Source: a virus (lineage: Duplodnaviria > Caudoviricetes). Taken from it: DNA of 63,157 bases. Below, piece by piece: positions 5,701-36,930 of this stretch (position 1 is the stretch's first letter; every line of letters begins with the position of its first letter). The stretch is from positions 1-63,157 of IMG/VR virus record IMGVR_UViG_3300033272_000024. The stretch is one strand, 5' to 3'. Both the position numbers and the translations under genes were made by a program. A model generated the notes under the pieces. That model did not search any database. It was not told the DNA's origin and saw only the letters and a program-made list of their open reading frames with translations.

Positions 5701-8336
5701 CTATAACACGGGGTTCTTTTAATACCAACGGGTATACGCTTAACAGCTCTTCTCCAACTACAGGATATATCAATGCTCTTGGCACAAATGCAAAGTCAAT
5801 TTCGTTTGGAGCTTCTACTGTTTATGGATGGTCGGGTTATAACGTTCGTACAATTGGGCTGACTTTTAGCGCAGGAACTTCTACCTTATACATAGACAGT
5901 TTTATTGGGAATAACGATAGCGCGTTGTATGCAGGACTTAGCTATTACAACGTAATATATAGAAATATTGACCCAGCGGTTACAAACGGTTTGTATGGAG
6001 CTAATACGTTCAACAACTTAACTATTCCAGCCCCTAATATTGTGGACAGCACAGTTCAAGCATCTCTTGCAACAATTGGAATAGGCACTCAAACAATCAA
6101 TGGGTTGTTTACTGTTGGAGGATCAACAGCGTATCTGCGAAACTCATTTGATGCATCGGGGACAACTCTTGCTTTTGTCGTAAACGGAACAACATCCCTT
6201 TCAGGTATTGATTTTGAAAATACTACTATCACTGGCACAGCAGTGCCCGTATCAGGTGTTTGGTTAAGCGATCTTGGTGGAAATTCAGGGGTTACTACAG
6301 ACGCTCCAAAAACAGTGTATAGAGCGAGTAATGGAGGTGTTGCTTGGGAAACAGGGTGGTCAACAACGTCTGGAGGAACAAGCGTAACAAACTTATTTCC
6401 ACTGGCACAAGACACTATTGTTTTTGATAACAGTTCGTCCAATACAGCTATAAACACACAGGCAAATCAGTGGAACATAGGGACAATTAACATGTCCGCA
6501 AGGACAAACGCGCTAACAATATCAGGGGGTAATCTAAGAGTTTATGGAGATTGGGTATATGGCTCGGGTATTACGTTTAGCACAGGAGCTATGTCCTGCC
6601 GCAGAAAAAGCGGTACTCAAACTATTACGTCCGCCGGTAAGACCTTTTTCGGTGTTTTTTTACTGGGTGCTGCCACAGTACAGCTACTAGACGCGCTCCA
6701 ATGCACTTCTGCGTTTGGTGTTTCATCAACTACCAGTTCTTTTGATGCAAATAATAAAAATGTTACTTGCAACGATGCTACCTTAAGCGGAACAGTAGTC
6801 ATGGGAAGCGGTACTTGGACTATGACGGGTACAGAAACAGTGTGGTACAAAACCACAGGGGTGATTAATGCTGGGACTTCGACCATTCTTCTTTCTAACA
6901 CCTCAACAACAGCGCGTTCGTTTATAGGCGGAGGAGCTACATACAATAAATTGACAATTGGAGGTGCTACAGGGGCCAGCACAACATCTCTTTTGAACAA
7001 CAGCACGTTTGGTGAGATTGCTAGTACCAAGACAGTAGCAGCAACAATTGCCCTTGGATCAACAATCCAAACAGTTGAAACATGGACAGCGGCGGGAACA
7101 GCGGGTAACTTGTTAACCGTATCGGGAACTTCCGCAGCATCGCCTGCATACCTTGTTTTAACTGGCGCTCCTAACACAAACGCAGTTGACTACCTAAACA
7201 TCACCAATGTACGTGCTACGCCCTTGGATACTACGTGGTATGCAGGCGCAAACTCGGTCAACAACGGGTCGCTGGGCTGGATATTTGAGAATGGTGCGGG
7301 CGTTACATATGCAGGAATCATACTAGAAGCCGCTGCCTCAACAGATGCTGTAGCCGCATTGAGCGCGTTCTTTGCTTCACTGGGGGAGACAGCTACAGCT
7401 ACAGATGCCAATGCAACGGCAGCTAGTTTTGCACCTTCTATCGGTGAAACAGCTACAGCTACAGATGCCAATGCAACGGCAGCTAGTTTTGCACCTTCTA
7501 TCGGTGAAACAGCTACAGCTACAGATGCCGACAGTGCAACGCTAACATTTTCTGCTACGCTTGCTGAAACCGCTACAGCCACTGACTTAAACAGTAGCTT
7601 GATGGCGTTTTACGCAGCCGTCGTAGAGATTGCTACAGCACTGGACACATTGATTGGGGCCAGTGGCTTTCTGTATGCGGCCTTTATCAACGAGGTAGCT
7701 ACTGCCACAGATAACGTTGCTGCTTTCGCGGCATTTGCTGCGGCTACAAATGAAATGGCCACGGCTACGGATGTCACTGGTTCAAGCGCTGCTTTCGCTC
7801 CTTTAGTTAATGAGACTGTCACGGCCACAGACGCGGCTTCGGTTAGCGCAGCTTTTGCAACACTGCTGGCTGAGTCGGCTACGGCTACAGACTTCTTGCT
7901 GGGGGGCCAACTATACCTTCGCGCAATCGCAGAAACTGCTACAGCTTCTGATGCCACAACAACAAGTGTCACTTTCCTCGGGTCTGTAAACGAGACATCT
8001 ACGGGTACAGACGCCACTTCGTCAGCGTATCTTTTCTTTGCCTTAGTATCTGAAACAGCCACGGCCACGGACAGCCTGACAACGATAGCTACGTTCAACG
8101 CCCTCGCTGCCGAAACTGCCACGGCCACAGAAGACATCAATGCACCGGGAAGTATCTATAACACTGCTGTTTTAGTTGCTGTAACGATTACAGATAATGT
8201 CATCGGCGCATACCTCTGGAATCCAATTGATGACAATCAGACACCAAGCTGGCAAAATGTTAATGATGCGCAGACTCCCGGATGGTCTACAGTTCCAACA
8301 CCGCAAACCCCAGCGTGGACGTCTATAATTAATTAA
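2778..8336 (+). CDS. Giant G/T/S/A-rich tail fibre or adhesin-like protein (1852 aa)
   Basis: Repeated RYW.GG.G.W and KTVYWNLAG modules; C-terminal ETATATD repeats of about 20 aa. Confidence 0.75.
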   Translation: MADRYWRGGGGTWNTTTTANWSATSGGAGGASAPTSADNAIFDANSGLTASSAVTITGGVCADLTYMPTATVGQRTFNIVDSLTISGVLSTSGTAGNNRLRIRSNTLGIATNMVVATLGSISDVDFIDVYVTGTAAPLTGTRLGNIANGRGVTFSTPKTVYWNLAGTQVWAANGWAATSGGTPSTDYFPLVQDTAVFDNAGAVTSISMVNSSFSYYGTVDMSARTTAMTIITGTNNQIFGNWTNGSGTAFSGTTVILFLSRTTQTITSAGKTWFAPITVNTYGGTVQLVDSLNIGANALTVTSGTFSTANQALTAGSIVSNTAGPRSISLGASNVTLSSTTAAFLFTVGDGLTFDAGTSSVNLPAGTSAFPGANFTYYDVTVGGSTATIAVSGINTFNNLSISGLRAVIFSANQTINNNLTWTGTTVATSRSNFQSNVVGTPITLTINNPPSLVDIDFQDITVIGTAAPISGTRFGDVGGNSGITFTSKTVYWNLAGTQVWAANGWAATSGGTPAVANFPLPQDTAVFNNAGSVTGTITINGAYKLPSVDMSTRTTAMTLGTSTNQPSVYGDWTNGSGTTLTGVGVLTFVKRSGATITSASKTFTQGIVFSSPGGSSTIADALITSASAGVSILSGTFSSGTYNVTTPAVISTGTLTRRLNMGSGLWTLSSAGNIWTVTSTGLTLDQGTANILSNTTSTLAKTFAGGGFSYNTLTIGGTGVSTLTFTGANSFTELASTKTVAHTVALSATFAQTFGAWTITGTAGNLVTVSGASSHIIAGARVSGVDYLTMGTTSFSLTSPGEFYRGANSTGTGAGINTGTAPTPVTRYWVGGTGIWSATNTVNWSDASGGIGGFSVPTSADTVIFDSLSNATAYTVTCTATQLRCASLTMGAPLTGNITWAGTAPLSVHGNFSLTGGTNITRTYTGAITFSGSTTGNTINANGIVFGANVTVDGVGCGWTMTSALEVGSSSILSITRGSFNTNGYTLNSSSPTTGYINALGTNAKSISFGASTVYGWSGYNVRTIGLTFSAGTSTLYIDSFIGNNDSALYAGLSYYNVIYRNIDPAVTNGLYGANTFNNLTIPAPNIVDSTVQASLATIGIGTQTINGLFTVGGSTAYLRNSFDASGTTLAFVVNGTTSLSGIDFENTTITGTAVPVSGVWLSDLGGNSGVTTDAPKTVYRASNGGVAWETGWSTTSGGTSVTNLFPLAQDTIVFDNSSSNTAINTQANQWNIGTINMSARTNALTISGGNLRVYGDWVYGSGITFSTGAMSCRRKSGTQTITSAGKTFFGVFLLGAATVQLLDALQCTSAFGVSSTTSSFDANNKNVTCNDATLSGTVVMGSGTWTMTGTETVWYKTTGVINAGTSTILLSNTSTTARSFIGGGATYNKLTIGGATGASTTSLLNNSTFGEIASTKTVAATIALGSTIQTVETWTAAGTAGNLLTVSGTSAASPAYLVLTGAPNTNAVDYLNITNVRATPLDTTWYAGANSVNNGSLGWIFENGAGVTYAGIILEAAASTDAVAALSAFFASLGETATATDANATAASFAPSIGETATATDANATAASFAPSIGETATATDADSATLTFSATLAETATATDLNSSLMAFYAAVVEIATALDTLIGASGFLYAAFINEVATATDNVAAFAAFAAATNEMATATDVTGSSAAFAPLVNETVTATDAASVSAAFATLLAESATATDFLLGGQLYLRAIAETATASDATTTSVTFLGSVNETSTGTDATSSAYLFFALVSETATATDSLTTIATFNALAAETATATEDINAPGSIYNTAVLVAVTITDNVIGAYLWNPIDDNQTPSWQNVNDAQTPGWSTVPTPQTPAWTSIIN
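3255..3295 (+). repeat. 41-bp exact internal repeat, copy 1 (copy 2 at 4248-4288)
   Basis: gtttactggaatcttgcgggcacgcaagtctgggctgcaaa occurs at both positions. Confidence 0.9.
7389..7529 (+). repeat. Perfect 60-bp tandem repeat (about 2.3 units) encoding TATATDANATAASFAPSIGE
   Basis: Lines 7381, 7441 and 7501 match in register. Confidence 0.95.
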
Positions 8337-16157: not shown

Positions 16158-19100
16158 ATGGGTTATGTTCGGAAAAAGACTGGCCTTGACCTTAATCCAC
16201 TTAACTTGGTTGAAAAAGCAGTTGATACGGTTGTTGATGTCGTCAATTTTACTGTTGACCAAATCATTGAACCTATAGTTAACACGGTGGTAGACGTTGT
16301 GCAAGCAGCACTAGACGACCCGATTAAAACTATAGCTCAAATTGCAGCGGTAGCAACTAAACAGTATTGGCTTCTTCCTATTATTGCTGGTGCTGATGTT
16401 GCTATAAAAGGTGGCGATTTAGGGGATGTTGCAAAAGCAGTTGCTATTTCTTATGTAATGCAAGAAGTAGCTCAGGGTGCTGGTGAATACGCTGGTGGAG
16501 CAGCTAGTGAGGCAGCAGTGGAAGCAGGATGGAGCGCTGCAAATGCGAAGTTGGCAGGTGAGATTATTGGCACGGGTGCTGGTGGCGCTGCTATAGCTGT
16601 TGTAACGGGTGGCGACCCACTGGAAGCGTTTCTTATTGGCGGCGCAACTGCTGGTGCTGGCGCTGTTCTTGGCAAAGTTTCGGGCTTTGGTGACTTTGCT
16701 AAGAATAATAAAGTAGCTGGCAAAGCTATTGAGGCAATGGTCGTAGCTAAACTGTCCGGAGGAAACGTTTCTGCGGCTGTTATTGGCTCTTTGATAGCAA
16801 CGTCTGGCCTTGTGGCGGATACCATCAAAGAGTTTGACCCATTGAACGGGCAACCCGGAGCTAAGTTTGATGCAGCACAAACAGCTATTATTACAAACGT
16901 ACTTACTGGAACGGCTAGTGCAGCCCTTTCAGGCGGCGATCCATCCCGAGTAATTCAAGCCGCACTGATGAAGGCTGGCTCCAAAGCTATCGGCGAAATG
17001 GCTACCGAAGGGTTTAAGTCGGCAACATCATCTGTTTCAGAATATTTCAATGGAGCAAAAAGCAAAGCCGACATTCTTGATGGAAACATTTCTGCACAAA
17101 ACGAAGCCTACAACAACTACAAAGCCTACGCTGACCCACTAAACGCTAGGGTAGCTGAGCAAACCCGACTAAAAGGCGTGTACGACGCTGCTGTTGCCGC
17201 ACACAACGCAAACCCTACCGAAGCCTCACGCAATACAGCTAATGCCGCTGGTGATGCTTTTGACGCTTACGTCACTAAGCTAAACAAAGACTACGCTGAA
17301 ACCTATAGCCCGAACATTAAGAAGTACGGCGACCAGCTTGATAAGTTGCAGCAAGACTACGCCGTAGCTACGGGTGACTATGAAAAAGCAATGGATGCGT
17401 TTGCTGATAGTACAGACAAACTATCTGCTGTACTTGACCCTATTTACCTGACTAGTAACCGTGCATTTACAGAGGCGCTTGACCCTAACTTTAATGCAGA
17501 TGAGTACCGGGAAATTAACGGCTTGGGCGCTGATGTAGACGTGTACGAAGACTACTTAAACCGTGGACAGCTTGAAGGTTTAGCGACAAACGATAAAGAC
17601 CAAGCGATTATTGAAGCAAGAAACCAATTAAAAGAAGCTACTGGGAAAGACATACCTAACTATATTATTGAGCGTGCGCTTACTACTGACAATGCAAATA
17701 GAGATACTATTGTTAAGCAGTATGCAGAGACTGCAATTCAAGACAATACAAAATCAATATCTACGCGAGAGGATGCAACTAATGCGGTGCTGGGCGCGTA
17801 TGAGCAAGCCGGTTATAGCCAAGAACAAATTAGCGCAAAGATAGATTCTGGTGAAGCTACGGCCAAAGCAAACCAGTTGCTTGAAGGGCAAAAAGCAAAC
17901 GTAGAAAGCTTGCGTCAATACGCTACTGATTTAGGCGCATCCGCAGGAACAGATAGCACTGAGTACAAGGCTGCTTATAAAGATGCTCTTAATGCTATGG
18001 CTGACTATGGCGGCTATGGCGTTACAAAAACTGGCGAAACGTTTGCAACCGCAGAGTACGGAAAACTTGATCCTGATAGGTTGTTGCCAGTAAGTTACCA
18101 CTCTGATACAGGGTGGTATCGTGACCCAGTAACGGGAGAGGCTTATTACAAAGTAGTAGTCACAGGCGGAACTCAAGAATATTTACCTGCGTCAGAAATT
18201 CCAGAGCAAGACATAAGCGCTTTATGGGCCATTGGAAACTCTGCCAATCCACCTGAAAGTGGTGGAGGTAGTTACTTTGGTAGTGGCTCTGGCGTATCCT
18301 CAGGGATGTTTGGCGGCTTGCAGCTTGTCTCAGTAGATGATGCTACTGGTGCCAAAATGTATTCAGACGGATCTGGTATGACGCTGATTGCATACTCTGA
18401 CGGAAAAGGAAAAGTAATTAACAACAACATGGAAGTTGAGTTGATTACGCCAGAAGATTTGGCTAAGTTGATGGGAGAAGTACCAATAGCTAAGCCTCCT
18501 ACGCCAGCAGCAGAAGTAAAACCCGTAGAAGAGCTTACTCAGCCAGAAGCTTACAACAAAGCCAAACAAGATGCTTTGGAAAGCGCGCAAACAGACCTGA
18601 AAAATAGCTACCAAACAGCAGACGAAGTTAAAGCTGCAATAGAGTCTTTTGGCTACAAGGCTACCCCACAAGAAATCCAGTCATTTGTTGGCGAAAAAAC
18701 GCCTGACCAAATGAAGTTTGATGTAGAAAAATATGTAGATCCTAAAGTGGTTAGTCGTGCCGAGGCGAAGGCTGCATACGCTGCGATAGGTATATCTAAA
18801 CCTACTAAAGCCGATATTGATAAATTAGTTGGACAATACTCGCAAATATATTTAAATGGAAAAGCTGCGGCCAACTTAGATGCTGCTCGGTACAACTCTA
18901 TTCAGCAACAACTAGATAACTTAAACATAACTCCAACAGATATTGAGGGTATGCGATCTTCTCTTACAGAGGCTATCCAAACAGCTATAGACTTTGGATT
19001 ACAGGGAGATGCTGCTTTACAGGCTGCAATTAGTGCAGTAGCAGAGTCGCAGCAAACTAGTAAAGAAGCGCTATTATCTAAATTAGGCACATCAGAATCT

Positions 19101-20480
19101 GCACTAAAATCTGAGTTTGCTGCTGGTTTCGCTGGTGTATCTCAGCAACTAAACGAAAAATACGCCGCTCTGACTGCTTCGCAAAAAGCTGAAGTTGATG
19201 CGCGTGTACAACAAGGCGCTGACTTGGGTGCAGCAATGGCTAGAGTGCAGTCGGCTCTTGAAGGGCAGATTGCTGGCGTAAGTGCTGACCTTAAAGAAGC
19301 TATCGACATAAACGAAGCTGCTGGCATGAGTAGAGATGCCGCAATTTCTAAGGCTGTTGATGATGTGGCGACAAGCGTTGGAACTACTCGTGCAGATTTA
19401 TTGGCCAAGCTTGGCGCTACAGAGCAAAGCCTGTTGGAAAAATTCCAAGCTGGACAAGATAAAACACAAGAGCAAATTGCTGGTGTAACTGCTGAAATGC
19501 AGGCGCAGTACGAGACATTAACGGCTGGACAAAAAGCCACTGCTGATGCTTTAGTAGCTCAAGGCAAAACGTTTCAAGAAGCAATTGATGCTGCACAAGC
19601 CGAAACAGCAGGGCAAATTGGTGACTTGACTACTGAAATGCAAGCGCAGTACGCCTCTTTGACCGACGCTCAAAAAGCAACTGCCGACGCTTTGATTGCC
19701 CAAGGTGAAACGACGCAGCAAGCAATTGCCACTGCTCAAGCAGAGACAACGGACTTAATAAACACCAAGACAGATGCAATTAACACCCGTATTGCAGAGC
19801 TAGTTGCCCAAGGCGCAAGCCAGCAAGCAGCCACTACGCAGGCGTTTGCAGAAGTAAATGAAAAGCTTGGCACACAAGGCCGTGGCCCGAATCAGAGCGA
19901 CTTGGATGCTTTAGAGCAGATGATTAGCGGAACACGGTCTACCGACCTTTCTTACGATACAAACAATGATGGAAGAATTGACGGGTCAGACCTAACATTT
20001 TTGACTGGTATTGTTAATGGGGATGCCGGTGGATCAGGATTTAATGCCCCATCTGGTTCGCCTTGGGCTGCTACAGGCTTGTATGGAAGCTTGGCTGATG
20101 CTGAAGCTGCACGAGCACAAGATGCTGCAAACCAAAAGGCAGCAGGCGAAGCAGCAGCAGCACAAGCAGCTACGAACGAAAAGAATGCACAGATACGCGG
20201 AGCCGGTGGTCGAGCAGCACAAGCCATGCAGCAGTTTGCTGGCTCTGCCCCTACATTGATACAACAAGCTACACAGCAAGTATCTGCGCCGATATACGGA
20301 CAAGCAGTAGAAGCTTTTGACTTTGGCGCACCTTTGGACTTTAACTACTTTAACCCTAGCAAGGAAAAACAAGGTAGCCAAACAGGTGGGCAAACAACTA
20401 AAATGGCATCTGGCGGGTATCTTGACGACCTGCTGGGTGAAGATATGTCAGTAGATGACCTACTGAAACTCTTACGCTAA
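16158..20480 (+). CDS. Large internal virion / ejection protein (1440 aa)
   Basis: Gly/Ala-rich hydrophobic N-terminus, coiled-coil repeats, EF-hand/dockerin-like DTNNDGRIDGSDL, C-terminal MASGG. Confidence 0.6.
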   Translation: MGYVRKKTGLDLNPLNLVEKAVDTVVDVVNFTVDQIIEPIVNTVVDVVQAALDDPIKTIAQIAAVATKQYWLLPIIAGADVAIKGGDLGDVAKAVAISYVMQEVAQGAGEYAGGAASEAAVEAGWSAANAKLAGEIIGTGAGGAAIAVVTGGDPLEAFLIGGATAGAGAVLGKVSGFGDFAKNNKVAGKAIEAMVVAKLSGGNVSAAVIGSLIATSGLVADTIKEFDPLNGQPGAKFDAAQTAIITNVLTGTASAALSGGDPSRVIQAALMKAGSKAIGEMATEGFKSATSSVSEYFNGAKSKADILDGNISAQNEAYNNYKAYADPLNARVAEQTRLKGVYDAAVAAHNANPTEASRNTANAAGDAFDAYVTKLNKDYAETYSPNIKKYGDQLDKLQQDYAVATGDYEKAMDAFADSTDKLSAVLDPIYLTSNRAFTEALDPNFNADEYREINGLGADVDVYEDYLNRGQLEGLATNDKDQAIIEARNQLKEATGKDIPNYIIERALTTDNANRDTIVKQYAETAIQDNTKSISTREDATNAVLGAYEQAGYSQEQISAKIDSGEATAKANQLLEGQKANVESLRQYATDLGASAGTDSTEYKAAYKDALNAMADYGGYGVTKTGETFATAEYGKLDPDRLLPVSYHSDTGWYRDPVTGEAYYKVVVTGGTQEYLPASEIPEQDISALWAIGNSANPPESGGGSYFGSGSGVSSGMFGGLQLVSVDDATGAKMYSDGSGMTLIAYSDGKGKVINNNMEVELITPEDLAKLMGEVPIAKPPTPAAEVKPVEELTQPEAYNKAKQDALESAQTDLKNSYQTADEVKAAIESFGYKATPQEIQSFVGEKTPDQMKFDVEKYVDPKVVSRAEAKAAYAAIGISKPTKADIDKLVGQYSQIYLNGKAAANLDAARYNSIQQQLDNLNITPTDIEGMRSSLTEAIQTAIDFGLQGDAALQAAISAVAESQQTSKEALLSKLGTSESALKSEFAAGFAGVSQQLNEKYAALTASQKAEVDARVQQGADLGAAMARVQSALEGQIAGVSADLKEAIDINEAAGMSRDAAISKAVDDVATSVGTTRADLLAKLGATEQSLLEKFQAGQDKTQEQIAGVTAEMQAQYETLTAGQKATADALVAQGKTFQEAIDAAQAETAGQIGDLTTEMQAQYASLTDAQKATADALIAQGETTQQAIATAQAETTDLINTKTDAINTRIAELVAQGASQQAATTQAFAEVNEKLGTQGRGPNQSDLDALEQMISGTRSTDLSYDTNNDGRIDGSDLTFLTGIVNGDAGGSGFNAPSGSPWAATGLYGSLADAEAARAQDAANQKAAGEAAAAQAATNEKNAQIRGAGGRAAQAMQQFAGSAPTLIQQATQQVSAPIYGQAVEAFDFGAPLDFNYFNPSKEKQGSQTGGQTTKMASGGYLDDLLGEDMSVDDLLKLLR

Positions 20481-24178: not shown

Positions 24179-27100
24179 ATGACGATAGAAGCAGAACTGG
24201 CCGATGGACGCATTCTTGAGTTCCCAGACGGTACTGACCCAAGCGTCATACAAGCAACAGTAAAGAGAATGCTCCCCGCCTCAACTGAACGAACGTTTGG
24301 CGAGGCTGTTAAGGACATTGGTGCTGGTGTAGTTTCTGGCACTGGCTCTCTTGTGCAGCTACCCGGCCAGTTGTACGGCTTGGCTACAGGCGACATGGAA
24401 GACAGTGGCCTACTAGGTGTTGGCAAAGATATTGCTGAGTACGGCCAAGAAATGAAATCTCCCGGCCTTAAAGCTAGGGAAGAAGTGCGTACCAAAAAGG
24501 TTGAAGAAGCTGCCAAAGACGGACAATTTTCAGCCTTTAAGACAGCGCTGAGCGAGACTGTAAAAGACCCCGGCCTGTTGCTTAACTTTCTGGCTGAGCA
24601 GGCTCCGTTGCTTGCCGTTCCATTTGGCGTGGGTCGTGGTGTAGCTGCTGGTGCACGCGCTGCTGGTGTAGGCGCAGAGGCTGCTGCTGGTGTTGGCACT
24701 AGTGCCGCTGTAGGCGCTGGTGCAGTGCAACAAGGGGCAGACGTTGGATCGGGTACTTACGAAAAGATTTACCAAGAGCTAAAAACCAAAGGGGCCAGCG
24801 AAGCAGAGGCTTCTGAAGGAACACTAAACCTAGCCCGTGCCGCTGGCGCAAGTGCAGGTTTGATTTCCGTACTAACAAACAAGCTTCCCGGCGCACGCAA
24901 GATGGAAGAGATTCTTGCTGGCGCACCTGCTGTTGGCGGAAGAATTGGTAGCGGCTTGAAGACTGCTGCCGGTGAAGTTGCAAGCGAAATCCCTGAAGAG
25001 GTTGGTGGACAGATTTCACAAAACTTGGCTGTGAAGCAAGTTAAGCCAGAGCAAGATGTATTTGAAGGCACTGGTGAGGCTGCTGCTATGGCTGCTGTTG
25101 GTGCTGCTGGATTGGGTGGGGCAACTGGACTTGCAAGCCGCGCTAAGCCTGCTGTACAACCTGCTGAGCCAGAAGTACCTGAAGCCCCAGAAGCACCTAC
25201 TTCGCCTACTGCGCCAACAGCGCCGCTAACCGCCATTGAAGCTCCAAGAACTTTTGAAGTTCCTAAGCTGCGCGGCCCGGATGATCGGCTGAGACTACCC
25301 GGCCCTATGACTAATGCTGTGCCAGAACCCGTGGCTGAGCCAGTAGCAGAGCCTGAATTTACAGACCAAGAGCGTGAAGCACTAAACAATTACACAAGTG
25401 GCGAACCTACTGCCGATGTGTTTACCGGGTTACAAAACCGTGACCGCGCTACCCCTGCCTCCATCCAGCAGATGAAGAGTATCTCCAGTAAGCCAGACTA
25501 TGACCGGCTAAAGGTGTCCCCTGACTTTGCCCAAGGCGCTCCCGTGGTGATGAGTGACCTAGAACTACCCCAAGGCAACATGGGTAGGACTGAAATGGTT
25601 ACTGCTGCCGATGGCCGCAAGATTCCAGTGCGCTATGCGGTGGTTAGCGCAAAAGATGTGATGACCTCCCACGACGCAAGCGGCCAAAAGATTCCCGGCT
25701 ATGCAAATGCTGAACAAAGTGGTCTGCGTGTAGTGGCTGGTAACGGACGAATTGCGGGCTTACAAGCTGCTTACGCGGGTAACACTGCGGGTGCTTACGC
25801 GAAACGTTTCGCCGGAGATACCCAGCACGGCATTTCTCCTGATGCTATTGCTGCCATTGCAGACCCAGTGCTTATCCGTGTGATGCCTAAGTCGTATGTC
25901 TCTAAAGACATTGGCGACGTATCCAATATTTCTGCTGGACTTGGCTTTAACCCAGTAGAGAAGGCAAAGAACGATGCTTCGCGGTTTGACCTGAACGGCT
26001 TGCAGTTCACAGAAGGAAAAGACGGCTCATTAGAAATTAACGAAGCGACTGCGGCTCAGTTTGTAAGAGCCATGCCTAAGACTGAACAAGCTGAAATGAT
26101 GGATGGCAAGGGTAAGCCAAACACGATGGCTATGTCTCGTTTAAACAATGCAATCTTCTATAAAGCTTACAACAGCGACACATTGATTGACCTGTTTGCC
26201 CAAGCTACAGACCCAGAGGCGAGACTGATTTTGCGCGGGATGCAGAAAGCAGCACCAAAAGCTTTTCAGCTTGAAGGCGCTGGTGAGTACGATGTTCGCA
26301 AGAACATCATTGATGCTGCTGAGCTTGCTATCAACGCACGCAGAGATGGCGTAAAGCTGAAGGACTACGTGAAGCAAGGCATGATTGACCTTGACCCAAA
26401 TACACGCGCAGTTCTGGAAATGTTTGCAGACAACAGCCGCTCCGGTGTACGCATGGGTGAAATGCTTTCTGAGCTTGCAGACAAAGCTTACCAACAGTCG
26501 CAAACTGGTGACGATATGTTCGGTGCTGTGCCTAAAGTGCCAGTCGCCGAGTTGTTTACGTTTCCAAAGCCAGCAAAAACAGAAGAGCCAGTGGCTGAGC
26601 CTGCTGTCGAGCCAGCCAAACCTGCTGCCGCAAAACCTGAGCCAACTAAGCCTGCTGCAAAGCCTACTCCAGCCAAACCTGCTGCCGCCAAAGCAGCCCC
26701 CAAGGCAGAGTCAAAGGACTTTGTATCTACGAAGCCAATAGAGCAGATTGCCAAAGAAATTACCGGCATGACCCTTCCACAATTGGCTAAGTGGGCCGTG
26801 GACAACGCGCCAAACAGCGCCGCTAAAGCCATTGCGGAAAAGGTTTCGGCGCGTGTAGCCGACTTTGGCAAACGAGGTATGTTTCCGAAAAAGGTAAAAA
26901 TCCTTAACGACGGACAGCGTAAAGAAAATGGTGTGCGCGGCTATGCACGATCATCCATGCTGGGTAATTCTGGTGTAAATATTGAGCTTGTATTGAATGG
27001 ATTGGTCAACGGAAAAGGAGACAGACTTACCGGAACCAATTACCAAACAATATTGCACGAACTAACGCACGTAGCAACTGTTATTCAAATTAATTATTCG

Positions 27101-30100
27101 CCCAACAGCAAAGAAGTAAATGATCTGAAAGTTCTTCTGCGGAAAGTAAAGCAGAGCATTGCTGTAGATGTCAATATGTACAGGAAGCATCCTATCGTTG
27201 AAAGTATTTCCAAAGGATCAAATACAGTTGTTGATACTGATGAATTACTTGCTTGGGGCTTTACCAATCCAGATTTTCAAGACTACCTATCTACTATTAA
27301 GGTAGGTGAAACAACTGCGTTTGGGCGACTGGCATCTATCGTTAGAAACTTGCTTGGCCTTGATGTTAAGTACGAAACCGCTTTGGATGCGCTTATGCGT
27401 ACCGGCGAAGCTTTGTTGGATATGTCTACGGCTGAATTACAAGATACTTTAAAACAAGGCGTCCTACTAAAAGGCATACCAAAGAAGCCAACTACAAGAA
27501 AAGCTGAAACAGTTCAGAAGGACAATATTGAATCAGACAACTTCAAAAAGTGGTTTGGCGATAGTAAGGTGGTAGACAAGAAGGGCGACCCGCTTATTGT
27601 TTATCATGGAACTCCAAATGGAGGCTTCTCAGCTTTTGATGCAAAGAAACTTGGCAAACGAGGAACTTTTGCATCATCGAAGTTGGGATTCTTTTTCTCA
27701 TCTAACCAAGGCTATGCCAACTTAATGGCGAGCTACACTAGAAATAAAGACACGGAATCTCCGACTGTTTATCCTGTTTATTTGAGTATTAAAAATCCGT
27801 TAAAAGTTTTTACTACGGAAATTTATAGTGCAAAAGAAGCAGATGAAATGCTACAGCAGGCCATAGACGGTGGTTATGACGGCATTGTGGATGAGATGGG
27901 TAACTATGTTGCATTTAAGCCAAATCAAATTAAAAGTGCTATTGGCAATAATGGCGAATACTCTGAAGCAAGTGAAATCATCACGGAAAGCCGTGTTAGC
28001 GACATGGCTGAGAAGGCTACAGAAGCGGCTAAAGAAGCTTTGCAGAAGCGTAAACCTATTGCCAGAGAAGCACTGAAGGACGTTGACCCTGACTACGTAG
28101 ACAAGCTGGGTAAAGTGTTTAACCCGCAAAGCGATACGATCATTGACAGGATTGCTTCTTTGAAAGACGGCTTCTGGCGGCGTGCGGCGCAGGGTATTGC
28201 TGACCAGTACCGAACTATCAAAGACTACTCTGAAGAGAGCTATATGCTGGCTCGTATTTCTAAGAGTATTGATGGTGCGCTAGAAGGACTGCTGTTCCAC
28301 GGCCATGTGTTCAATGATGGCGGTGCGCTAAACATTGACACCAAAGGCAAGGGATTGCTGGATGCGCTGAAGCCAGTTGGCCTAGAGACAGACCGCTACA
28401 TGATGTGGATTGCCTTGAACCGCGAGGCACGGCTACCGAAAGACAAACGATCCCCTAACCTAGCTGACTTGCTGGATGGCCGGGAAACACTTGCAGCGGG
28501 TAAGCTGGATGGTAAGTCACGGCTTGATGTTTACCGCCAAGTACAAAAGGACATGAACGCACTGAACAAATCCGTGCTGGATGTTGCGCTGGGTGCTGGC
28601 TTGATTAACTCATCCGTCAAAGACATTGCTGCCTTGCGTGAACGGACTGATTTGAGCGAGAAAGAAATCAACGACAAGATTGCAGAGCTACAGCAAAACC
28701 CCGGCGCGTATGAACGGTTTACTGCTGACATCTTCTACATTCCTTTTTACAAGCAAATGGAAGATGGCGACTTGCAGGGTGCTTCAACCGCTTCGGGATT
28801 GACTAGCCAGAGCTTTAGTAAAGCGCTAGAAGGCAAGAACGACAAGCCGTTTGGCGACTTGATGGAAAACACACTGAGGAATTGGTCGCACATTCTTTCG
28901 GCTTCGATGAAGAACCAAGCTTCTAAGTCCACCTTGGATGCAGCCATTAACGTTGAAGCTGCCCTGCCTAACTTGAAGCCTCAGTTTGCATGGCAAGACG
29001 GCCAAGTGGTAAGCGCTAAAACAGGCGAAGTAGTGGGTGATGGCAGTTTGCAGTTTGGTCAAACCAAGTCCGACAAGGGTATGGTTAAGATCATGGTGAA
29101 CGGTCAGCCAACCTACTATGAAGTGCTTGACCCAATGTTGCTAGATGCAATTTCAGCCATTGGCTACACAGGGCCAAAGTCAAAGTTCCTTGATGTAGCG
29201 CGTGACTTTAAGAACATTCTTCAGTACGGTGTTACTTTGTCTCCGGCGTTTAAGGTGCGAAATCTGATTCGTGACTCTGTTTCTGCGCTTGCTGTATCGG
29301 GCTTGAAAAAGAATCCAGTAGCCAACGTTATTGAAGGCTTGTCTATCTCGGATGCCAAGAGTCCGTTGTACATATCTGCACTGGCCGGTGGAGCTATCTT
29401 TAATTTTGGCTCTGCTTACGAGGGGGATCAGGCAAGATTAGTGAAACGTCTTCTCAAATCAGGGGTGCAGCCTAACTCTATTTTGAACACACAAGAGAAG
29501 ATTAAAAAGGCACTGCTGGCCGCGCACGCAGCGTATGAGGTGCTTGGAAATAAGTCTGAAGCAGCCAACCGTATGGCTCTTTACAAGCAGATGCGCGACA
29601 AGGGTATGAGCCACTTAGAAGCCTCCTACCAAGCGCGTGACTTGCTGGACTTCTCTATGCAAGGCTCATGGCCTGCTTTTAGATTGCTGACGCAAGTGGT
29701 TCCGTTCTTGAATGCGCGGGTACAGGGCTTGTACAAACTAGGCCGTGACGGTGTTATCCCAACGGCGCGAGTGATTTACAACGCCTCAACTGGCAAAGAG
29801 ATTGATGCTACAGACAGAATGAAAGCGCAGCAATTTAGCATCGTTGCAAGTGCTGTTGGCTTGGCCTCGCTAATGCTGTACTTTGCCTTTAAAGATGATG
29901 AAGACTTTAAAGCACGGGATGAGTGGGACAGGGACAACTTCTGGTGGTTTAAGCTGCCGGGTATGGATCAAGCTTTCCGTATTCCAAAGCCGTTTGAACT
30001 GGGTGCATTTGGAACTATTGCCGAACGAGTGGCTGAGCAGATTTTCGACCAAGGTGCAGAGGGCAAGCAGATTGAGAAAAGCTTGACCCGTATGTTGGGC

Positions 30101-30796
30101 GATACGTTCTCGCTGAATCCTACTCCGCAGATCATTAAGCCGCTTCTTGACTTGTATGCAAACAAGGACAGCTTTACAGGTGCGCCGATTGAGTCTTCAG
30201 GCATGGAGCGCTTGTCTAAGCAAGAGCGCATTACGGACAACACCAGCCCACTGGCTGTACTTTTCTCTGGTATTGCAAACGTTGCATTACCAGAGAAAAC
30301 TGAAATGTCTCCGGTTCAAGTTGACTACGCTATCAAGGCGTACTTCGGCTGGCTGGGTGGCTCGGCTTCTTGGTTGTCACACTATGCCACTATGCCATTT
30401 AGTGAAGGCACTAGGCCCGACAACAGGTGGACGGATACGCTGAGCATGGGTTTTGTCAAAGACCTTCCGGCAAACCAATCTAAGTACGTGACAGCGTTCT
30501 ACGACCAATCAAAAGAGATTGGTCAGGCGTATGCAGATATGCGCCACTACGCTTCAATTGGCGACTCAGAAAAGGTAGAAAAAATACTTGAGGAAAAGGG
30601 CGACAAGATTGCCTTGGCTAAGTTCTACGACAAGACCTCAAAGGACATGGCAAGAGTCAGGGCGGCTATCCGCGTAATTACGAACGACAAAGATATGCCC
30701 GGCGACCAGAAGAAAGAAGAGATTGAAAGACTCAAGCTCATCATTTCTGAAATCGCCAAGCAAGCTGAAACCGTCCGTAAAGATATGAAGAACTAG
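24179..30796 (+). CDS. Large polyvalent (DarA-like, injected) protein: ParB-like + zincin + ART-like + LPD38-like domains
   Basis: LQNRDR...VVAGNGR (ddrB-like ParB); ILHELTH (HExxH); FKKWFGDSKVVD..G.PL.VYHGT...GFFF...VYL.IKNP...GYDGI (ART-PolyVal-like); RIPKPFELG (LPD38-like). Confidence 0.8.
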   Translation: MTIEAELADGRILEFPDGTDPSVIQATVKRMLPASTERTFGEAVKDIGAGVVSGTGSLVQLPGQLYGLATGDMEDSGLLGVGKDIAEYGQEMKSPGLKAREEVRTKKVEEAAKDGQFSAFKTALSETVKDPGLLLNFLAEQAPLLAVPFGVGRGVAAGARAAGVGAEAAAGVGTSAAVGAGAVQQGADVGSGTYEKIYQELKTKGASEAEASEGTLNLARAAGASAGLISVLTNKLPGARKMEEILAGAPAVGGRIGSGLKTAAGEVASEIPEEVGGQISQNLAVKQVKPEQDVFEGTGEAAAMAAVGAAGLGGATGLASRAKPAVQPAEPEVPEAPEAPTSPTAPTAPLTAIEAPRTFEVPKLRGPDDRLRLPGPMTNAVPEPVAEPVAEPEFTDQEREALNNYTSGEPTADVFTGLQNRDRATPASIQQMKSISSKPDYDRLKVSPDFAQGAPVVMSDLELPQGNMGRTEMVTAADGRKIPVRYAVVSAKDVMTSHDASGQKIPGYANAEQSGLRVVAGNGRIAGLQAAYAGNTAGAYAKRFAGDTQHGISPDAIAAIADPVLIRVMPKSYVSKDIGDVSNISAGLGFNPVEKAKNDASRFDLNGLQFTEGKDGSLEINEATAAQFVRAMPKTEQAEMMDGKGKPNTMAMSRLNNAIFYKAYNSDTLIDLFAQATDPEARLILRGMQKAAPKAFQLEGAGEYDVRKNIIDAAELAINARRDGVKLKDYVKQGMIDLDPNTRAVLEMFADNSRSGVRMGEMLSELADKAYQQSQTGDDMFGAVPKVPVAELFTFPKPAKTEEPVAEPAVEPAKPAAAKPEPTKPAAKPTPAKPAAAKAAPKAESKDFVSTKPIEQIAKEITGMTLPQLAKWAVDNAPNSAAKAIAEKVSARVADFGKRGMFPKKVKILNDGQRKENGVRGYARSSMLGNSGVNIELVLNGLVNGKGDRLTGTNYQTILHELTHVATVIQINYSPNSKEVNDLKVLLRKVKQSIAVDVNMYRKHPIVESISKGSNTVVDTDELLAWGFTNPDFQDYLSTIKVGETTAFGRLASIVRNLLGLDVKYETALDALMRTGEALLDMSTAELQDTLKQGVLLKGIPKKPTTRKAETVQKDNIESDNFKKWFGDSKVVDKKGDPLIVYHGTPNGGFSAFDAKKLGKRGTFASSKLGFFFSSNQGYANLMASYTRNKDTESPTVYPVYLSIKNPLKVFTTEIYSAKEADEMLQQAIDGGYDGIVDEMGNYVAFKPNQIKSAIGNNGEYSEASEIITESRVSDMAEKATEAAKEALQKRKPIAREALKDVDPDYVDKLGKVFNPQSDTIIDRIASLKDGFWRRAAQGIADQYRTIKDYSEESYMLARISKSIDGALEGLLFHGHVFNDGGALNIDTKGKGLLDALKPVGLETDRYMMWIALNREARLPKDKRSPNLADLLDGRETLAAGKLDGKSRLDVYRQVQKDMNALNKSVLDVALGAGLINSSVKDIAALRERTDLSEKEINDKIAELQQNPGAYERFTADIFYIPFYKQMEDGDLQGASTASGLTSQSFSKALEGKNDKPFGDLMENTLRNWSHILSASMKNQASKSTLDAAINVEAALPNLKPQFAWQDGQVVSAKTGEVVGDGSLQFGQTKSDKGMVKIMVNGQPTYYEVLDPMLLDAISAIGYTGPKSKFLDVARDFKNILQYGVTLSPAFKVRNLIRDSVSALAVSGLKKNPVANVIEGLSISDAKSPLYISALAGGAIFNFGSAYEGDQARLVKRLLKSGVQPNSILNTQEKIKKALLAAHAAYEVLGNKSEAANRMALYKQMRDKGMSHLEASYQARDLLDFSMQGSWPAFRLLTQVVPFLNARVQGLYKLGRDGVIPTARVIYNASTGKEIDATDRMKAQQFSIVASAVGLASLMLYFAFKDDEDFKARDEWDRDNFWWFKLPGMDQAFRIPKPFELGAFGTIAERVAEQIFDQGAEGKQIEKSLTRMLGDTFSLNPTPQIIKPLLDLYANKDSFTGAPIESSGMERLSKQERITDNTSPLAVLFSGIANVALPEKTEMSPVQVDYAIKAYFGWLGGSASWLSHYATMPFSEGTRPDNRWTDTLSMGFVKDLPANQSKYVTAFYDQSKEIGQAYADMRHYASIGDSEKVEKILEEKGDKIALAKFYDKTSKDMARVRAAIRVITNDKDMPGDQKKEEIERLKLIISEIAKQAETVRKDMKN

Positions 30797-35137: not shown

Positions 35138-35422
35138 ATGAGAGCAGCAAGACGCGATGACAACGAAGCAGAAATTGTTAAGGCTCTACGTGCGTGTGGG
35201 GCTAAGGTGCGGATTGTCACTCAGGGCGATGGCATTCCTGATTTGCTGGTTACGTATAAGGGTTACACGATCCTTATGGAAGTCAAAGACGGACTGAAAC
35301 CCCCGTCAGCCAGAAAGCTGACAGAGGCTGAACAGAAGTTCTTTGATGAATGGACTGGCGGAATGCTGGCAAAAGTAGAGTCCGTGGAAGAAGCTCTGGA
35401 CATCCTGAAAGCTTGCGTGTAG
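35138..35422 (+). CDS. VRR-NUC-type nuclease
   Basis: RRDDNEAEIV.ALR..G...GIPDLLV...EVK...LT..E..F. Confidence 0.85.
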   Translation: MRAARRDDNEAEIVKALRACGAKVRIVTQGDGIPDLLVTYKGYTILMEVKDGLKPPSARKLTEAEQKFFDEWTGGMLAKVESVEEALDILKACV

Positions 35423-35465
35423 ACTGAGGGCGAGGGTTGTCATTGGCCTTCTCCTTGTATTGAGT

Positions 35466-35498
35466 TGCTCCCGCCTAAAAAACGGGAGCTTTTTTTTT
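35466..35498 (+). terminator. Intrinsic terminator
   Basis: GCTCCCG-loop-CGGGAGC followed by T9. Confidence 0.85.
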
Positions 35499-35506
35499 GA
35501 TACCTG

Positions 35507-35536
35507 TTGACACGTTGAGTTGTGTTGGTGTACATT
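35507..35536 (+). promoter_or_regulatory. Sigma70-like promoter
   Basis: TTGACA-N18-TACATT. Confidence 0.7.
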
Positions 35537-35540
35537 GGAG

Positions 35541-35641
35541 TTGTTGTCGTTGCACACAGCATATCTAGCCGCTTCATTAAGTATCTTGCCTTTGGTTCTT
35601 CCAAGGGGTGCAATCAAGATACTTAGTAAAGCGGCTTTTTT
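35541..35641 (+). ncRNA. Candidate C4-like small regulatory RNA / attenuator
   Basis: Long stem AGCCGCTT..TAAGTATCTTG / CAAGATACTTA..AAGCGGCT followed by a T-tract; the upstream TTGCAC is complementary to GTGCAA in the loop. Confidence 0.5.
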
Positions 35642-36041
35642 GTTTCCTGCTACGGTTAACTGGTTCCAGAGGTCTATCGGGTTTTGGGTTGGCATGAGGG
35701 AAGCGTAGGAAACCGCAAGGTGTAGTCCGCAGTCCATCAGCCCTACAACGTTCTGATCTGGAGCGAGAGCGCAAAGAAGTCACCGTGGCGCAACTGGGGG
35801 AGCATCTATCTTTAACCGCGAGTGAAAGCCTTTCGGGTATGGGGTAGGTCTAAATGGCCGGGGTAGACGTTGCCAAGCGACGGAAAGCATTTAGAGGTGA
35901 CACAGGCTGGGATGATGTCACTCCACACGGAATACTAAGCTACGGCTCCGGGAAAGTGGAAAGCGCCTAGGTGGAGACAGCCTCTCCCCTAGGCAGATGC
36001 TTGTCCAGCCGAACCTAGCACCCACCAAGAAAGTAACTAAG

Positions 36042-36548
36042 ATGAATCCAGAACTTCACACAGCAGAAGCTTGGATGGCAGCAATTCCTACTCAGCGTAG
36101 AGAGTTCATTGCTAAAGTAAGAGTCGAGGTAAGGGCTAGGGACGGCCTTGCAAAGCAGGAGCGACTTCGGACAAAAGAAGAAAGTAAAGTTGTTATCCCA
36201 AAAAAGAAAAAACCTACTAGGCGGCAGCGATCTACAGAAGCCAAGATTCTTGCTCAAATAAAACAATACGATAGACCGACTAAGGTTAGAAATTCCGGTG
36301 TTACATCCGACTCATTCTTGTCTAGCTATGAGTGGCGGAAAGTACGGATGGTGGCGTTAAAGATGCACGGGCCTAAATGCCAATGCTGCGGGGCTACTCC
36401 TGCTGACGGCGCGGTTATGAATGTTGACCATATCAAACCAAGAAAACTTTACCCTAGCCTCGCGCTGGATGTAACGAACCTTCAAATACTTTGCCATCCC
36501 TGTAACCACGGAAAAGGCAATTGGGATCAAACTGATTGGCGTGCGTAA
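36042..36548 (+). CDS. HNH endonuclease (McrA-like) with basic N-terminal extension
   Basis: WRKVR..AL...CQCCG...VDHIKP...L...NLQILC.PCN.GK. Confidence 0.9.
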   Translation: MNPELHTAEAWMAAIPTQRREFIAKVRVEVRARDGLAKQERLRTKEESKVVIPKKKKPTRRQRSTEAKILAQIKQYDRPTKVRNSGVTSDSFLSSYEWRKVRMVALKMHGPKCQCCGATPADGAVMNVDHIKPRKLYPSLALDVTNLQILCHPCNHGKGNWDQTDWRA

Positions 36549-36574
36549 AAAAACCCGCTGGGCTAGAGCGGGTT
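36547..36574 (-). terminator. Intrinsic terminator between convergent genes
   Basis: AACCCGCT/AGCGGGTT stem with an A-tract on + (T-tract on -). Confidence 0.8.
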
Positions 36575-36579
36575 GGTGG

Positions 36580-36930
36580 CTAAGCAGCCATTCTAAAAAG
36601 CATCTTTTTGTGAAGCTGCTTATCTCTGTACCTTTGAGATTTTTCTACTGATGACAGCTTGGGTTGCTTCATGTCATCTCCAAAGCCAAGCTGATACACC
36701 CGGATTACGCTACGTCCTTGGGCGTCTTCTTCCCAGCCACAGATATGGCAAGCCCCAACTTTGTATAAAGCTGCGGCATACCGGATCACAGAGCCATAGT
36801 GCAGGCCTGTTTTCTCGGCCAGTTGCCTAGCGGTATAGGTTCCTTCAAGCATACAGAGCATAAGGCTGGCACTGGTAAGAGCGCCGATCTTTGTCATCTT
36901 TCGGCCTTTGTTTGTTGGAGGTTTGTTCAT
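36580..36930 (-). CDS. Winged-HTH-like protein
   Basis: TARQLAEKTGLHYGSVIRY...L...G..HI..W. Confidence 0.65.
   Translation of the reverse strand: MNKPPTNKGRKMTKIGALTSASLMLCMLEGTYTARQLAEKTGLHYGSVIRYAAALYKVGACHICGWEEDAQGRSVIRVYQLGFGDDMKQPKLSSVEKSQRYRDKQLHKKMLFRMAA

Follow-up and report, generated by a model that had tools for sequence, protein, structure and literature searches.

GOLLD and ROOL are large, intricately folded RNA genes of unknown function that are borne by phages, and they often adjoin tRNA genes. In the IscB/omega-RNA (HEARO) systems a structured RNA ends at the start of an open reading frame (ORF) for an HNH-domain protein. The IscB effector is a protein of ~400-500 aa with a split RuvC domain and an HNH domain, together with PLMP and bridge-helix parts. 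Phages also carry free-standing homing endonuclease genes, such as the seg and mob genes of T4. The locus described here bears some likeness to each of these systems. It lies within the complete 63,157-bp record IMGVR_UViG_3300033272_000024 of a tailed virus (the whole of which is called the window below), and comprises an RNA gene of ~375 nt at 35662-36036 on the plus strand, followed on the same strand by a small HNH endonuclease gene. The RNA belongs to a family conserved among uncultured freshwater tailed phages. The best explanation, to which we assign a probability of roughly 0.7, is that a pseudoknotted RNA of a new family is encoded here by a stand-alone phage gene, whose 3′ edge carries an optional HNH cassette of the homing type.

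Homologs, covariation and fold of the RNA

The first loci were fetched through the HNH protein and through a 94-aa protein encoded upstream. They gave 16 distinct contigs with a ~375-nt stretch that is 72-88% identical to 35665-36036. The wider collection was made with a gapped pattern composed of two invariant motifs, CTATCGGGTT and TAC(A/G)ACGTTC, both carried by the 5′ domain of the RNA. The pattern matched 59 viral stretches and at least 120 metagenome stretches, and the runs containing the stretch are all freshwater, lake, wetland or wastewater metagenomes. Viral and metagenome contigs together yielded at least 164 complete elements, at least 99 of which are unique full-length sequences. 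The alignment used throughout (A1) contains the window and 99 homologs, a total of 100 sequences in 452 columns, with a mean column identity of 63% and some 50 invariant positions. The invariance of the two motifs is partly by construction, because both served as the search pattern. In pairwise comparisons with relatives the RNA is 84-88% identical, compared with 73-76% for the flanking protein genes. A search of cultured-phage DNA with 35400-36600 gave no match.

The helices were taken from an unbiased mutual-information scan of the first 53 sequences together with a stack search, and were then checked pair by pair. The structure scored on A1 has 78 pairs in 16 helices. In this structure 92.0% of the cells are paired, compared with 36.7-43.1% when the partners are slid by 1-3 columns. 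A total of 62 pairs change on both sides (30-39 with slid partners), and the covariation score is 0.442 (0.078-0.116 with slid partners). None of 500 column shuffles attained any of the observed values. G-U pairs are frequent, which fits the plus strand. There is no coding signal in the alignment: of 2392 gap runs only 384 have a length divisible by 3, and the variability of the columns has no period of 3. The single-sequence folding energy carries no signal (z = +0.37, with 62 of 100 shuffles folding equally well, and z = +0.75 for the other strand), so that the support for RNA structure comes only from the comparison of homologs. This comparison shows that the RNA family exists, that structural selection on the plus strand is strong, that the RNA is non-coding and that it is better conserved than the surrounding protein genes.

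The RNA is predicted from the alignment to fold as at least 16 helices around an H-type pseudoknot. The elements of the structure, numbered from the 5′ end, are as follows.

35662-35765, plus strand: 5′ domain, in which P1 encloses P2 and a three-part P3 (helices 1-6 of A1)
35662-70/35757-65, plus strand: P1, enclosing P2 and P3
35686-92/35737-43, plus strand: P2
35699-701/35733-35, 35703-05/35728-30 and 35712-14/35719-21, plus strand: P3, capped by a GNRA loop
35769-35791, plus strand: P4, a GCGC/GCGC hairpin (helix 7), 100% paired, with two of four pairs changing on both sides
35794-35895, plus strand: pseudoknotted core (helices 8-12)
35794-97/35858-61, plus strand: pseudoknot helix PK (helix 8), 4 bp, 99.5% paired, all four pairs changing on both sides
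35811-14/35840-43 and 35816-21/35831-36, plus strand: P6 hairpin, with the consensus loop GGTTCAAGTCC
35850-56/35888-94, plus strand: P7 (helix 11), with seven of seven pairs changing on both sides
35868-71/35879-82, plus strand: P8, all four pairs covarying
35896-902/35916-22, plus strand: P9 hairpin (with P10, helices 13 and 14), with seven of seven pairs changing on both sides
35923-26/35956-59, plus strand: P10 hairpin, whose loop carries repeat R1 (35942-35959) with an invariant GGCTCC
35965-67/35992-94 and 35973-77/35983-87, plus strand: P11 hairpin, with five of five pairs of the inner helix 16 changing on both sides
35992-95/36002-05, plus strand: P12, a small hairpin overlapping P11
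36019-36036, plus strand: repeat R2, a direct copy of R1 with an invariant CACC, at the 3′ boundary of the conserved RNA

Beyond the 5′ domain the strand would form P4, whose loop carries AGAAG in all 100 aligned sequences, and then enter the core. The loop of P6 looks like a T-loop in most homologs, and the single-stranded segments GCTAGA and GAAAG of the core are conserved. From the 3′ end of the core the strand continues through the hairpins P9 to P12, of which P12, like helix 15, hardly varies, and ends in a single-stranded tail formed by R2.

A first-pass annotation, made from the letters of the window alone, had proposed a new large phage non-coding RNA at this position. The proposal is borne out by 100 distinct sequences, by strong covariation that includes the pseudoknot, and by the lack of any Rfam match. 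The stems that it had picked out are real: TCTAAATG/CATTTAGA is P7, GTGACA/TGTCAC is P9, and GCCTAGG/CCTAGGC, with an inner GGAGA/TCTCC, is P11. Its six GNRA loops survive in part. The loop ccGCAAgg (35713-35720) is conserved as a hairpin loop, but the other five are not: gtGAAAgc is a loop in the window, where most homologs have GGTTCAAGTCC instead, and the remaining four fall in junctions, in a stem or in R1. The region was also correctly seen as lacking a credible ORF, since the largest ORF-free gap of the 63-kb genome, in a permissive greedy ORF set (at least 45 aa), is 35738-35996. The sole ORF over 35306-35737 is on the minus strand, and crosses a homolog-supported gene, a terminator and a promoter.

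No Rfam family matched at gathering score over the whole window, and at E up to 10 the region 35400-36650 gave only chance-level hairpin matches. The covariance models of RNase P, tmRNA, GOLLD, ROOL, OLE and raiA have no match in the window, and ARAGORN finds neither a tRNA nor a tmRNA there. An Rfam scan of 16 related loci matched only tRNAs. A full-text literature search, judged mostly from listings and abstracts, returned no description of the RNA. A set of 8,495 unnamed candidate structured RNAs from IMG/VR has been reported, in a paper whose main text carries no mention of HNH (PMC10690425); the supplementary tables of that paper may already list parts of the RNA. Two 2026 preprints, searched by term, mention neither phage nor HNH. 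The family appears to be new and uncatalogued.

The RNA differs from GOLLD and ROOL in matching neither Rfam model in sequence or structure. At ~375-450 nt it has about half the size of these RNAs, and it differs from them in having the direct-repeat tail R1/R2. A further contrast lies in its distribution, since a collection of 185,579 species genomes contained 18 matches to the search pattern, and nhmmer, at E up to 1, confirmed none of them. These matches are treated as chance, and no bacterial or prophage copy was seen. GOLLD and ROOL have been described as large ornate bacterial RNAs that form homo-oligomeric complexes (PMC12286853).

The HNH gene and the sequence following the RNA

The gene that follows the RNA in the window is the following.

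36042-36548, plus strand: HNH endonuclease gene (168 aa), an optional cassette; the N-terminal half of the protein is rich in Lys and Arg and is poorly conserved

The protein matches Pfam HNH at residues 113-160 of 168 (E 1.6e-8), with sub-threshold matches to HNH_5 and Endonuclease_7. Apart from a small-terminase family and a family without assigned function, its PHROG matches are all HNH families. An HNH gene with an Arg/Lys-rich N-terminal region, as read from the sequence in the first pass, is thus present. The gene is optional. It lies behind the RNA in 29 of the 92 evaluable homologs (those with at least 400 nt of downstream sequence), always directly after R2 and in the orientation of the RNA. 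In most homologs this position is taken by another gene, or by a terminator and a fresh promoter. The other downstream genes, named by eye from their translations, are ParB-like, small-terminase-like and further unrelated ORFs. The boundary is sharp. Sequence similarity stops at 36034 for loci L319, L007 and L188 and at 36036 for L002, and 8 nt lead from the end of the conserved RNA to the HNH start codon. The most direct comparison is with a lake DNA contig from another study (run X5), in which the RNA is 98.5% identical to that of the window (6 differences in 403 nt). In this contig 36035-36546, the whole of the HNH ORF, is exchanged for 349 other letters; the joint is at 36034/36547, and similarity returns at the terminator. 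In L319 the RNA region is ~87% identical, while the N-terminal half of the HNH protein is unrelated and similarity returns only in the HNH domain. Viewed from the side of the nuclease, 65 of the 80 closest HNH loci are without RNA variant 1 or variant 2 (the latter described below) within reach. A proxy for non-coding DNA upstream of HNH homologs, the longest open frame within 400 nt, scored known RNA loci as 'coding-like', and no count was taken from it.

These observations bear upon the suggestion, made in the first-pass annotation, that the RNA is the partner of the nuclease as in the HEARO or IscB/omega-RNA systems. RNA and HNH would then be one unit, in which the RNA guides or activates the nuclease. 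Such a unit would fit the 8-nt spacing, the adjacency and common strand of the HNH gene wherever it is present (29/29), the Lys/Arg-rich N-terminal half of the protein, and the presence (by eye) of other HNH homologs that are also behind long non-coding stretches. It is largely refuted by the distribution of the HNH gene. In contrast to the obligate pairing of IscB with its RNA, the homologs are mostly without HNH (63/92), the ORF has been replaced beside an RNA that is almost unchanged, and half of the protein has been exchanged in L319. The protein is moreover not IscB-like, because it has 168 aa and an HNH domain only; Pfam finds no RuvC-like domain at E up to 0.01, and PLMP and bridge-helix parts are lacking. 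The HEARO model (RF02033) has no match at gathering score in the whole window or at E up to 10 in 35400-36650, and no IS200/IS605 transposon context is seen in the ORFs around the locus. We therefore regard a guide or activator of the nuclease as highly improbable; an RNA with an unrelated HNH neighbour, which had been offered as the alternative, is closer to the data. The HNH gene resembles the free-standing homing endonuclease genes in being small, in its patchy occurrence at one intergenic spot among close relatives with sharp boundaries, and in its position beside the best-conserved sequence of the neighbourhood without a promoter-like site of its own. It differs from them in that the gene whose edge it adjoins encodes an RNA and not a protein. 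We infer that it is a free-standing cassette of the homing type, which would have landed at the 3′ edge of the RNA gene and would borrow its transcript; the purine-rich tail R2 would then provide the 5′ untranslated and ribosome-binding region of HNH.

A different relationship to the downstream gene would exist if the RNA were a cis-acting leader, that is a long 5′ untranslated region governing how the next gene is translated or how stable its transcript is, with R2 as the ribosome-binding sequence and R1 as a decoy in a switch. We consider this unlikely. In every case examined the next gene is on the strand of the RNA, its start codon lies within ~20 nt of R2 in many homologs, and contigs from RNA libraries bridge the 3′ part of the RNA and HNH, all of which a leader would explain. 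The DNA between the RNA and the next gene was scanned for promoters and terminators in 68 HNH-less and 29 HNH-linked homologs. A site of the form TTGACN-N16-19-TAnnnT occurs within 220 nt downstream in 31 of the 68 HNH-less homologs and in none of the 29 HNH-linked loci, the latter being in keeping with a leader. A hairpin with a T run, built with the last bases of the RNA or just after them, is present in 16 of the 68 HNH-less homologs, mostly from one clade. Where a promoter or terminator stands between the RNA and the next gene, the RNA cannot be the leader of that gene. Furthermore, the downstream genes are unrelated to one another, no common anti-sequence pairing with R1 or R2 was found, and ~375 nt with some 50 invariant positions are far above the needs of translational operators as generally known.

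The direct repeat R1/R2 and the possible role of the RNA

R1 forms the 3′ part of the loop of P10 and R2 the tail of the RNA. They are direct copies with co-varying letters. Position 35953 has a mutual information of 1.11 with 36030, and the two carry the identical letter in 80% of the sequences. The letters are identical in 82% of sequences for 35954 with 36031, in 99% for 35955 with 36032 and in 91% for 35943 with 36021. The repeat also contains a fixed difference, GGCTCC in R1 and N-CACC in R2, which argues against simple gene conversion. Most of the R1 and R2 cores are purine-rich and Shine-Dalgarno-like, which a leader would also explain.

A pairing partner for the repeat was sought in several ways. 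A third segment complementary to the R1/R2 core has no consistent site in the 300 nt upstream, in the element itself or in the 200 nt downstream. There is no standard-pair covariation partner of R1 or R2 in A1, and no exact complement of the core elsewhere in the window. Neither the 45-nt leader nor the downstream segment +8 to +60 shows cognate specificity in its duplex energy with R1/R2 (51 non-redundant sequences of the 100): non-cognate combinations are at least as good in a fraction of 0.45-0.60, compared with 0.11 for the P7 control. The upstream leader unit was rejected as a partner, since it is exchanged while R1 and R2 remain unchanged. Coding, mini-ORF and ribosome-hopping readings of the repeat were set aside because the indels are mostly not multiples of 3, and small ORFs, read by eye in certain sequences, are out of frame or missing in the others. 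A tRNA- or tmRNA-like reading of the CACCA tail with the T-loop-like hairpin was rejected, with ARAGORN and Rfam negative and no acceptor-type pairing seen by eye. CsrA-site and anti-Shine-Dalgarno readings, judged by eye, suit the majority core. They do not suit R2 of the window, and they leave the joint change of the two copies unexplained. Possible readings of the repeat are a partner in trans that reads both copies, pairing of R1 in the RNA with template DNA at R2, and a competition between R2 and R1 for a single docking site.

The first of these possibilities is in keeping with an RNA that acts as a folded RNA in its own right, either as a ribozyme or as the scaffold of an RNA-protein particle; it would not guide HNH, and it would be more than a leader. 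R1 and R2 would then be two copies of one short 'address', presented to a single partner encoded outside the RNA. We hold this view of a folded RNA presenting one address twice tentatively, at a little below even odds.

Pairing of R1 with the template forms the basis of a different proposal, in which the RNA would be a replication primer or origin RNA. The loop R1 would pair with the template strand at R2 to form a persistent hybrid that gives rise to a primer, in the manner of ColE1 RNA II, the plasmid primer RNA whose persistent RNA-DNA hybrid is processed to the primer. Like RNA II, the RNA of the window is long and folded, and has an upstream segment identical to a downstream one, which could pair with template DNA. 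Covariation of R1 and R2 to the same letter without a third complementary segment is what R1-template pairing would lead one to expect. The locus lies among genes for an Erf-like protein, a PD-(D/E)XK exonuclease and a helicase, and similarity between phages breaks right after R2. Yet the resemblance to RNA II is confined to one feature, and it is set against a phage context, the lack of any visible equivalent of the antisense RNA I, and terminators right after R2 in some homologs. The terminator-like hairpin at R2 in 16 of 68 HNH-less homologs is better suited to a discrete RNA, the GC skew has no switch at the locus beyond that of gene orientation, and nothing links the site to DNA synthesis. 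A primer is in our estimate improbable. Slightly more doubtful still is a processing ribozyme derived from a group I intron and comparable to GIR1, which would cleave the transcript that contains it and so generate the 5′ end of the mRNA downstream. The GIR1 lariat-capping ribozyme likewise lies upstream of a homing-endonuclease gene, and a homing-type endonuclease gene follows the present RNA in one third of cases. The order of the segments in the core (PK 5′, hairpin, P7 5′, 1 nt, PK 3′, 6 nt, P8, 5 nt, P7 3′, P9) is the group I order P3-[P4-P6]-P7-P3′-P8-P7′-P9, with a P3/P7-type pseudoknot and P8 between the 3′ strands. A very weak hint comes from contigs of two RNA libraries of one study, which start at 35986 and 35990, inside P11. 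The likeness to group I is one of topology only, and the same topology belongs equally to an ordinary H-type pseudoknot that has hairpins in two loops. At E up to 10 the Intron_gpI model matches neither the region nor the 63-kb genome as a whole (5 candidates scored), and the GIR1 model has no match in the region. The pairs of P7 all vary, the commonest G-C pair being present in 59 of 100 sequences; there is no conserved guanosine-binding pair, because no P7 pair is an invariant G-C. A single hairpin stands in place of the P4-P6 domain. The upstream flank is a promoter and leader hairpin and the downstream flank a variable gene or a terminator, with no interrupted gene or exons, and no internal guide is complementary to R1 or R2. 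A group I intron proper was rejected on the lack of a model match, of an invariant G-C in P7, of a P4-P6 domain and of exons.

Surroundings of the locus and related RNAs

The large terminase of the window is 52-58% identical to those of Phage DSL-LC04 and the Pelagibacter phages HTVC027P and HTVC023P, and the record has direct terminal repeats. RNA and HNH gene sit in a small plus-strand island surrounded by minus-strand early genes. To the left of the island are the genes for the Erf-like annealing protein and the PD-(D/E)XK exonuclease (from Pfam, PHROGs and the ORF list), and the helicase (Pfam, PHROGs) is also among the recombination and replication genes near the locus. The structural half of the genome contains three very large ORFs on the plus strand, at 2778-8336 (1852 aa), 16158-20480 (1440 aa) and 24179-30796 (2205 aa). 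The features flanking the RNA and HNH are as follows.

35138-35422, plus strand: gene for the 94-aa protein, at the upstream start of the island; 51 related loci at 38-90% identity
35467-35498, plus strand: terminator-like hairpin GCTCCCG/CGGGAGC with a run of 9 T, ending the 94-aa gene (direct reading of the sequence)
35507-35536, plus strand: sigma-70-type promoter-like site, TTGACA, 18 nt, TACATT (10/12 matches)
35543-35641, plus strand: leader or small-RNA-like unit; a brief 5′ segment precedes a long imperfect hairpin at 35567-35635, and a T run follows at 35636-35641
36552-36574, both strands (the scan listed the minus strand): terminator-like hairpin with T runs on both sides, preceded by an A run and followed by a T-rich stretch

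The 94-aa protein, which is conserved in front of the RNA slot, has no match in Pfam or PHROG, and from a PD...EVK pattern in its sequence it looks like a minimal PD-(D/E)XK nuclease. The terminator at 35467-35498 was not on the scan list because its loop has 9 nt. That at 36552-36574 would serve as a two-way terminator common to the HNH gene and the converging minus-strand genes. The isrK Hfq-binding RNA model gives a weak match at 36548-36619 on the minus strand (E 0.058, 21 bits where the gathering score is 50); this rests on the terminator hairpin and is probably chance. The description of the unit as bounded by a promoter and terminators agrees with the promoter-like site at 35507-35536 and the hairpin/T-run sites at 35467-35498, 35567-35641 and 36552-36574.

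The leader unit had ~50 nhmmer matches among the fetched loci after one iteration. In nearly every homolog a promoter (by eye) is followed by a structured unit of 100-170 nt that ends with a hairpin and a T run. The units are of at least three types with unrelated sequences, one of which has an apparent GGCTTGG/CCAAGCC pseudoknot, and none matches Rfam. The types are exchanged between phages whose large RNAs are 95-98% identical. It is possible that the leader units are small RNAs, or attenuators that control the large RNA. Transcription of the RNA itself would start at the promoter at 35507-35536 and read through the hairpin and T run of the leader. Contigs of 151 nt over 35986/35990-36133, with 1 difference each, are present in two metatranscriptome runs from a single study. 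They are weak evidence that the RNA's 3′ part and the beginning of HNH are on one molecule in RNA libraries, with DNA carry-over possible. The starts of the two contigs are 4 nt apart and lie inside P11, which is a faint sign, at most, of a 5′ end defined there. In RNA libraries X19 and X20 no contig covers 35645-35985, and no conclusion was drawn from this.

Among the 60 loci examined, 4 have tRNA genes, which immediately precede the leader and the large RNA and share their strand. This suggests an RNA-gene corner of these genomes, though the link is weak.

L002:2042-2463, strand of the RNA: tRNA genes Met, Pro and Asn
L100:3538-3707, strand of the RNA: tRNA genes Pro and His
L240:6090-6164, strand of the RNA: tRNA gene Met
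L158:10089-10164, strand of the RNA: tRNA gene Thr

The same slot is occupied in other phages by different RNAs. Variant 2, of ~450 nt, was found as 10 distinct sequences, and the contig most closely related to the window has variant 2 and not variant 1. By eye, variant 2 shares with variant 1 the 5′ TCTATCGGG motif, the logic of P1, the P11/P12 module and a co-varying direct repeat, with a hairpin between the matched cores as in variant 1, and has a different core. Variants 3-5, also judged by eye, are long, conserved, structured-looking and non-coding, and have the same kinds of leader unit in front; in variants 4 and 5 matched cores flank a hairpin.

L045:2312-2763: variant 2; relatives in L003/L082, L010, L024, L061, L046, L004, L005, L083 and L037
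L006, L008, L019 and L020: variant 3, ~450 nt upstream of HNH genes
L009, L012, L014 and L031: variant 4, ~450 nt upstream of HNH genes
L015: variant 5, ~450 nt upstream of HNH genes

The similarities between the variants suggest a superfamily or a shared 'RNA slot'. A bolder view, which we think unlikely to be correct, is that freshwater phages maintain an RNA slot with at least five variants behind interchangeable leader units and built on the R1/R2 device, in which the R1 loop would read template DNA or another nucleic acid at the 3′ end of the same RNA, giving an R-loop that primes replication of the phage DNA or a ribozyme that sets the 5′ end of any gene cassette placed downstream. To our knowledge neither mechanism is known for tailed phages.

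Several points weigh against a stand-alone RNA gene with an optional nuclease cassette. There is no space for a sigma-70 promoter between the T run of the leader and P1, and read-through from the promoter at 35507-35536 was inferred for this reason. The contigs from RNA libraries cover only 35986-36133 and parts of HNH, and might derive from DNA carry-over. By eye, several other HNH homologs lie behind the other long non-coding stretches (variants 3-5), and the HNH family may prefer such RNA slots, making the link possibly stronger than 29/92. The two-motif pattern may miss divergent members of the RNA family, and the homing activity of HNH is deduced solely from its patchy distribution.

New classes of large, intricately folded RNA are rare, and those known earlier, as far as is generally known, are ribozymes, RNA-protein machines or self-assembling RNA cages. 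The present family provides starting material in the form of 100 distinct sequences, a pseudoknot proven by covariation and ~50 invariant positions, and its place in the genomes of an abundant group of uncultured lake phages is well defined. Its co-varying direct repeat is an unusual signal, invisible to structure searches based on inverted complementarity. For those seeking new nucleases the locus is a caution, since a structured RNA abutting an HNH ORF is insufficient to call an RNA-guided system. At this locus of the phage genome the RNA is the conserved resident and the nuclease the visitor.

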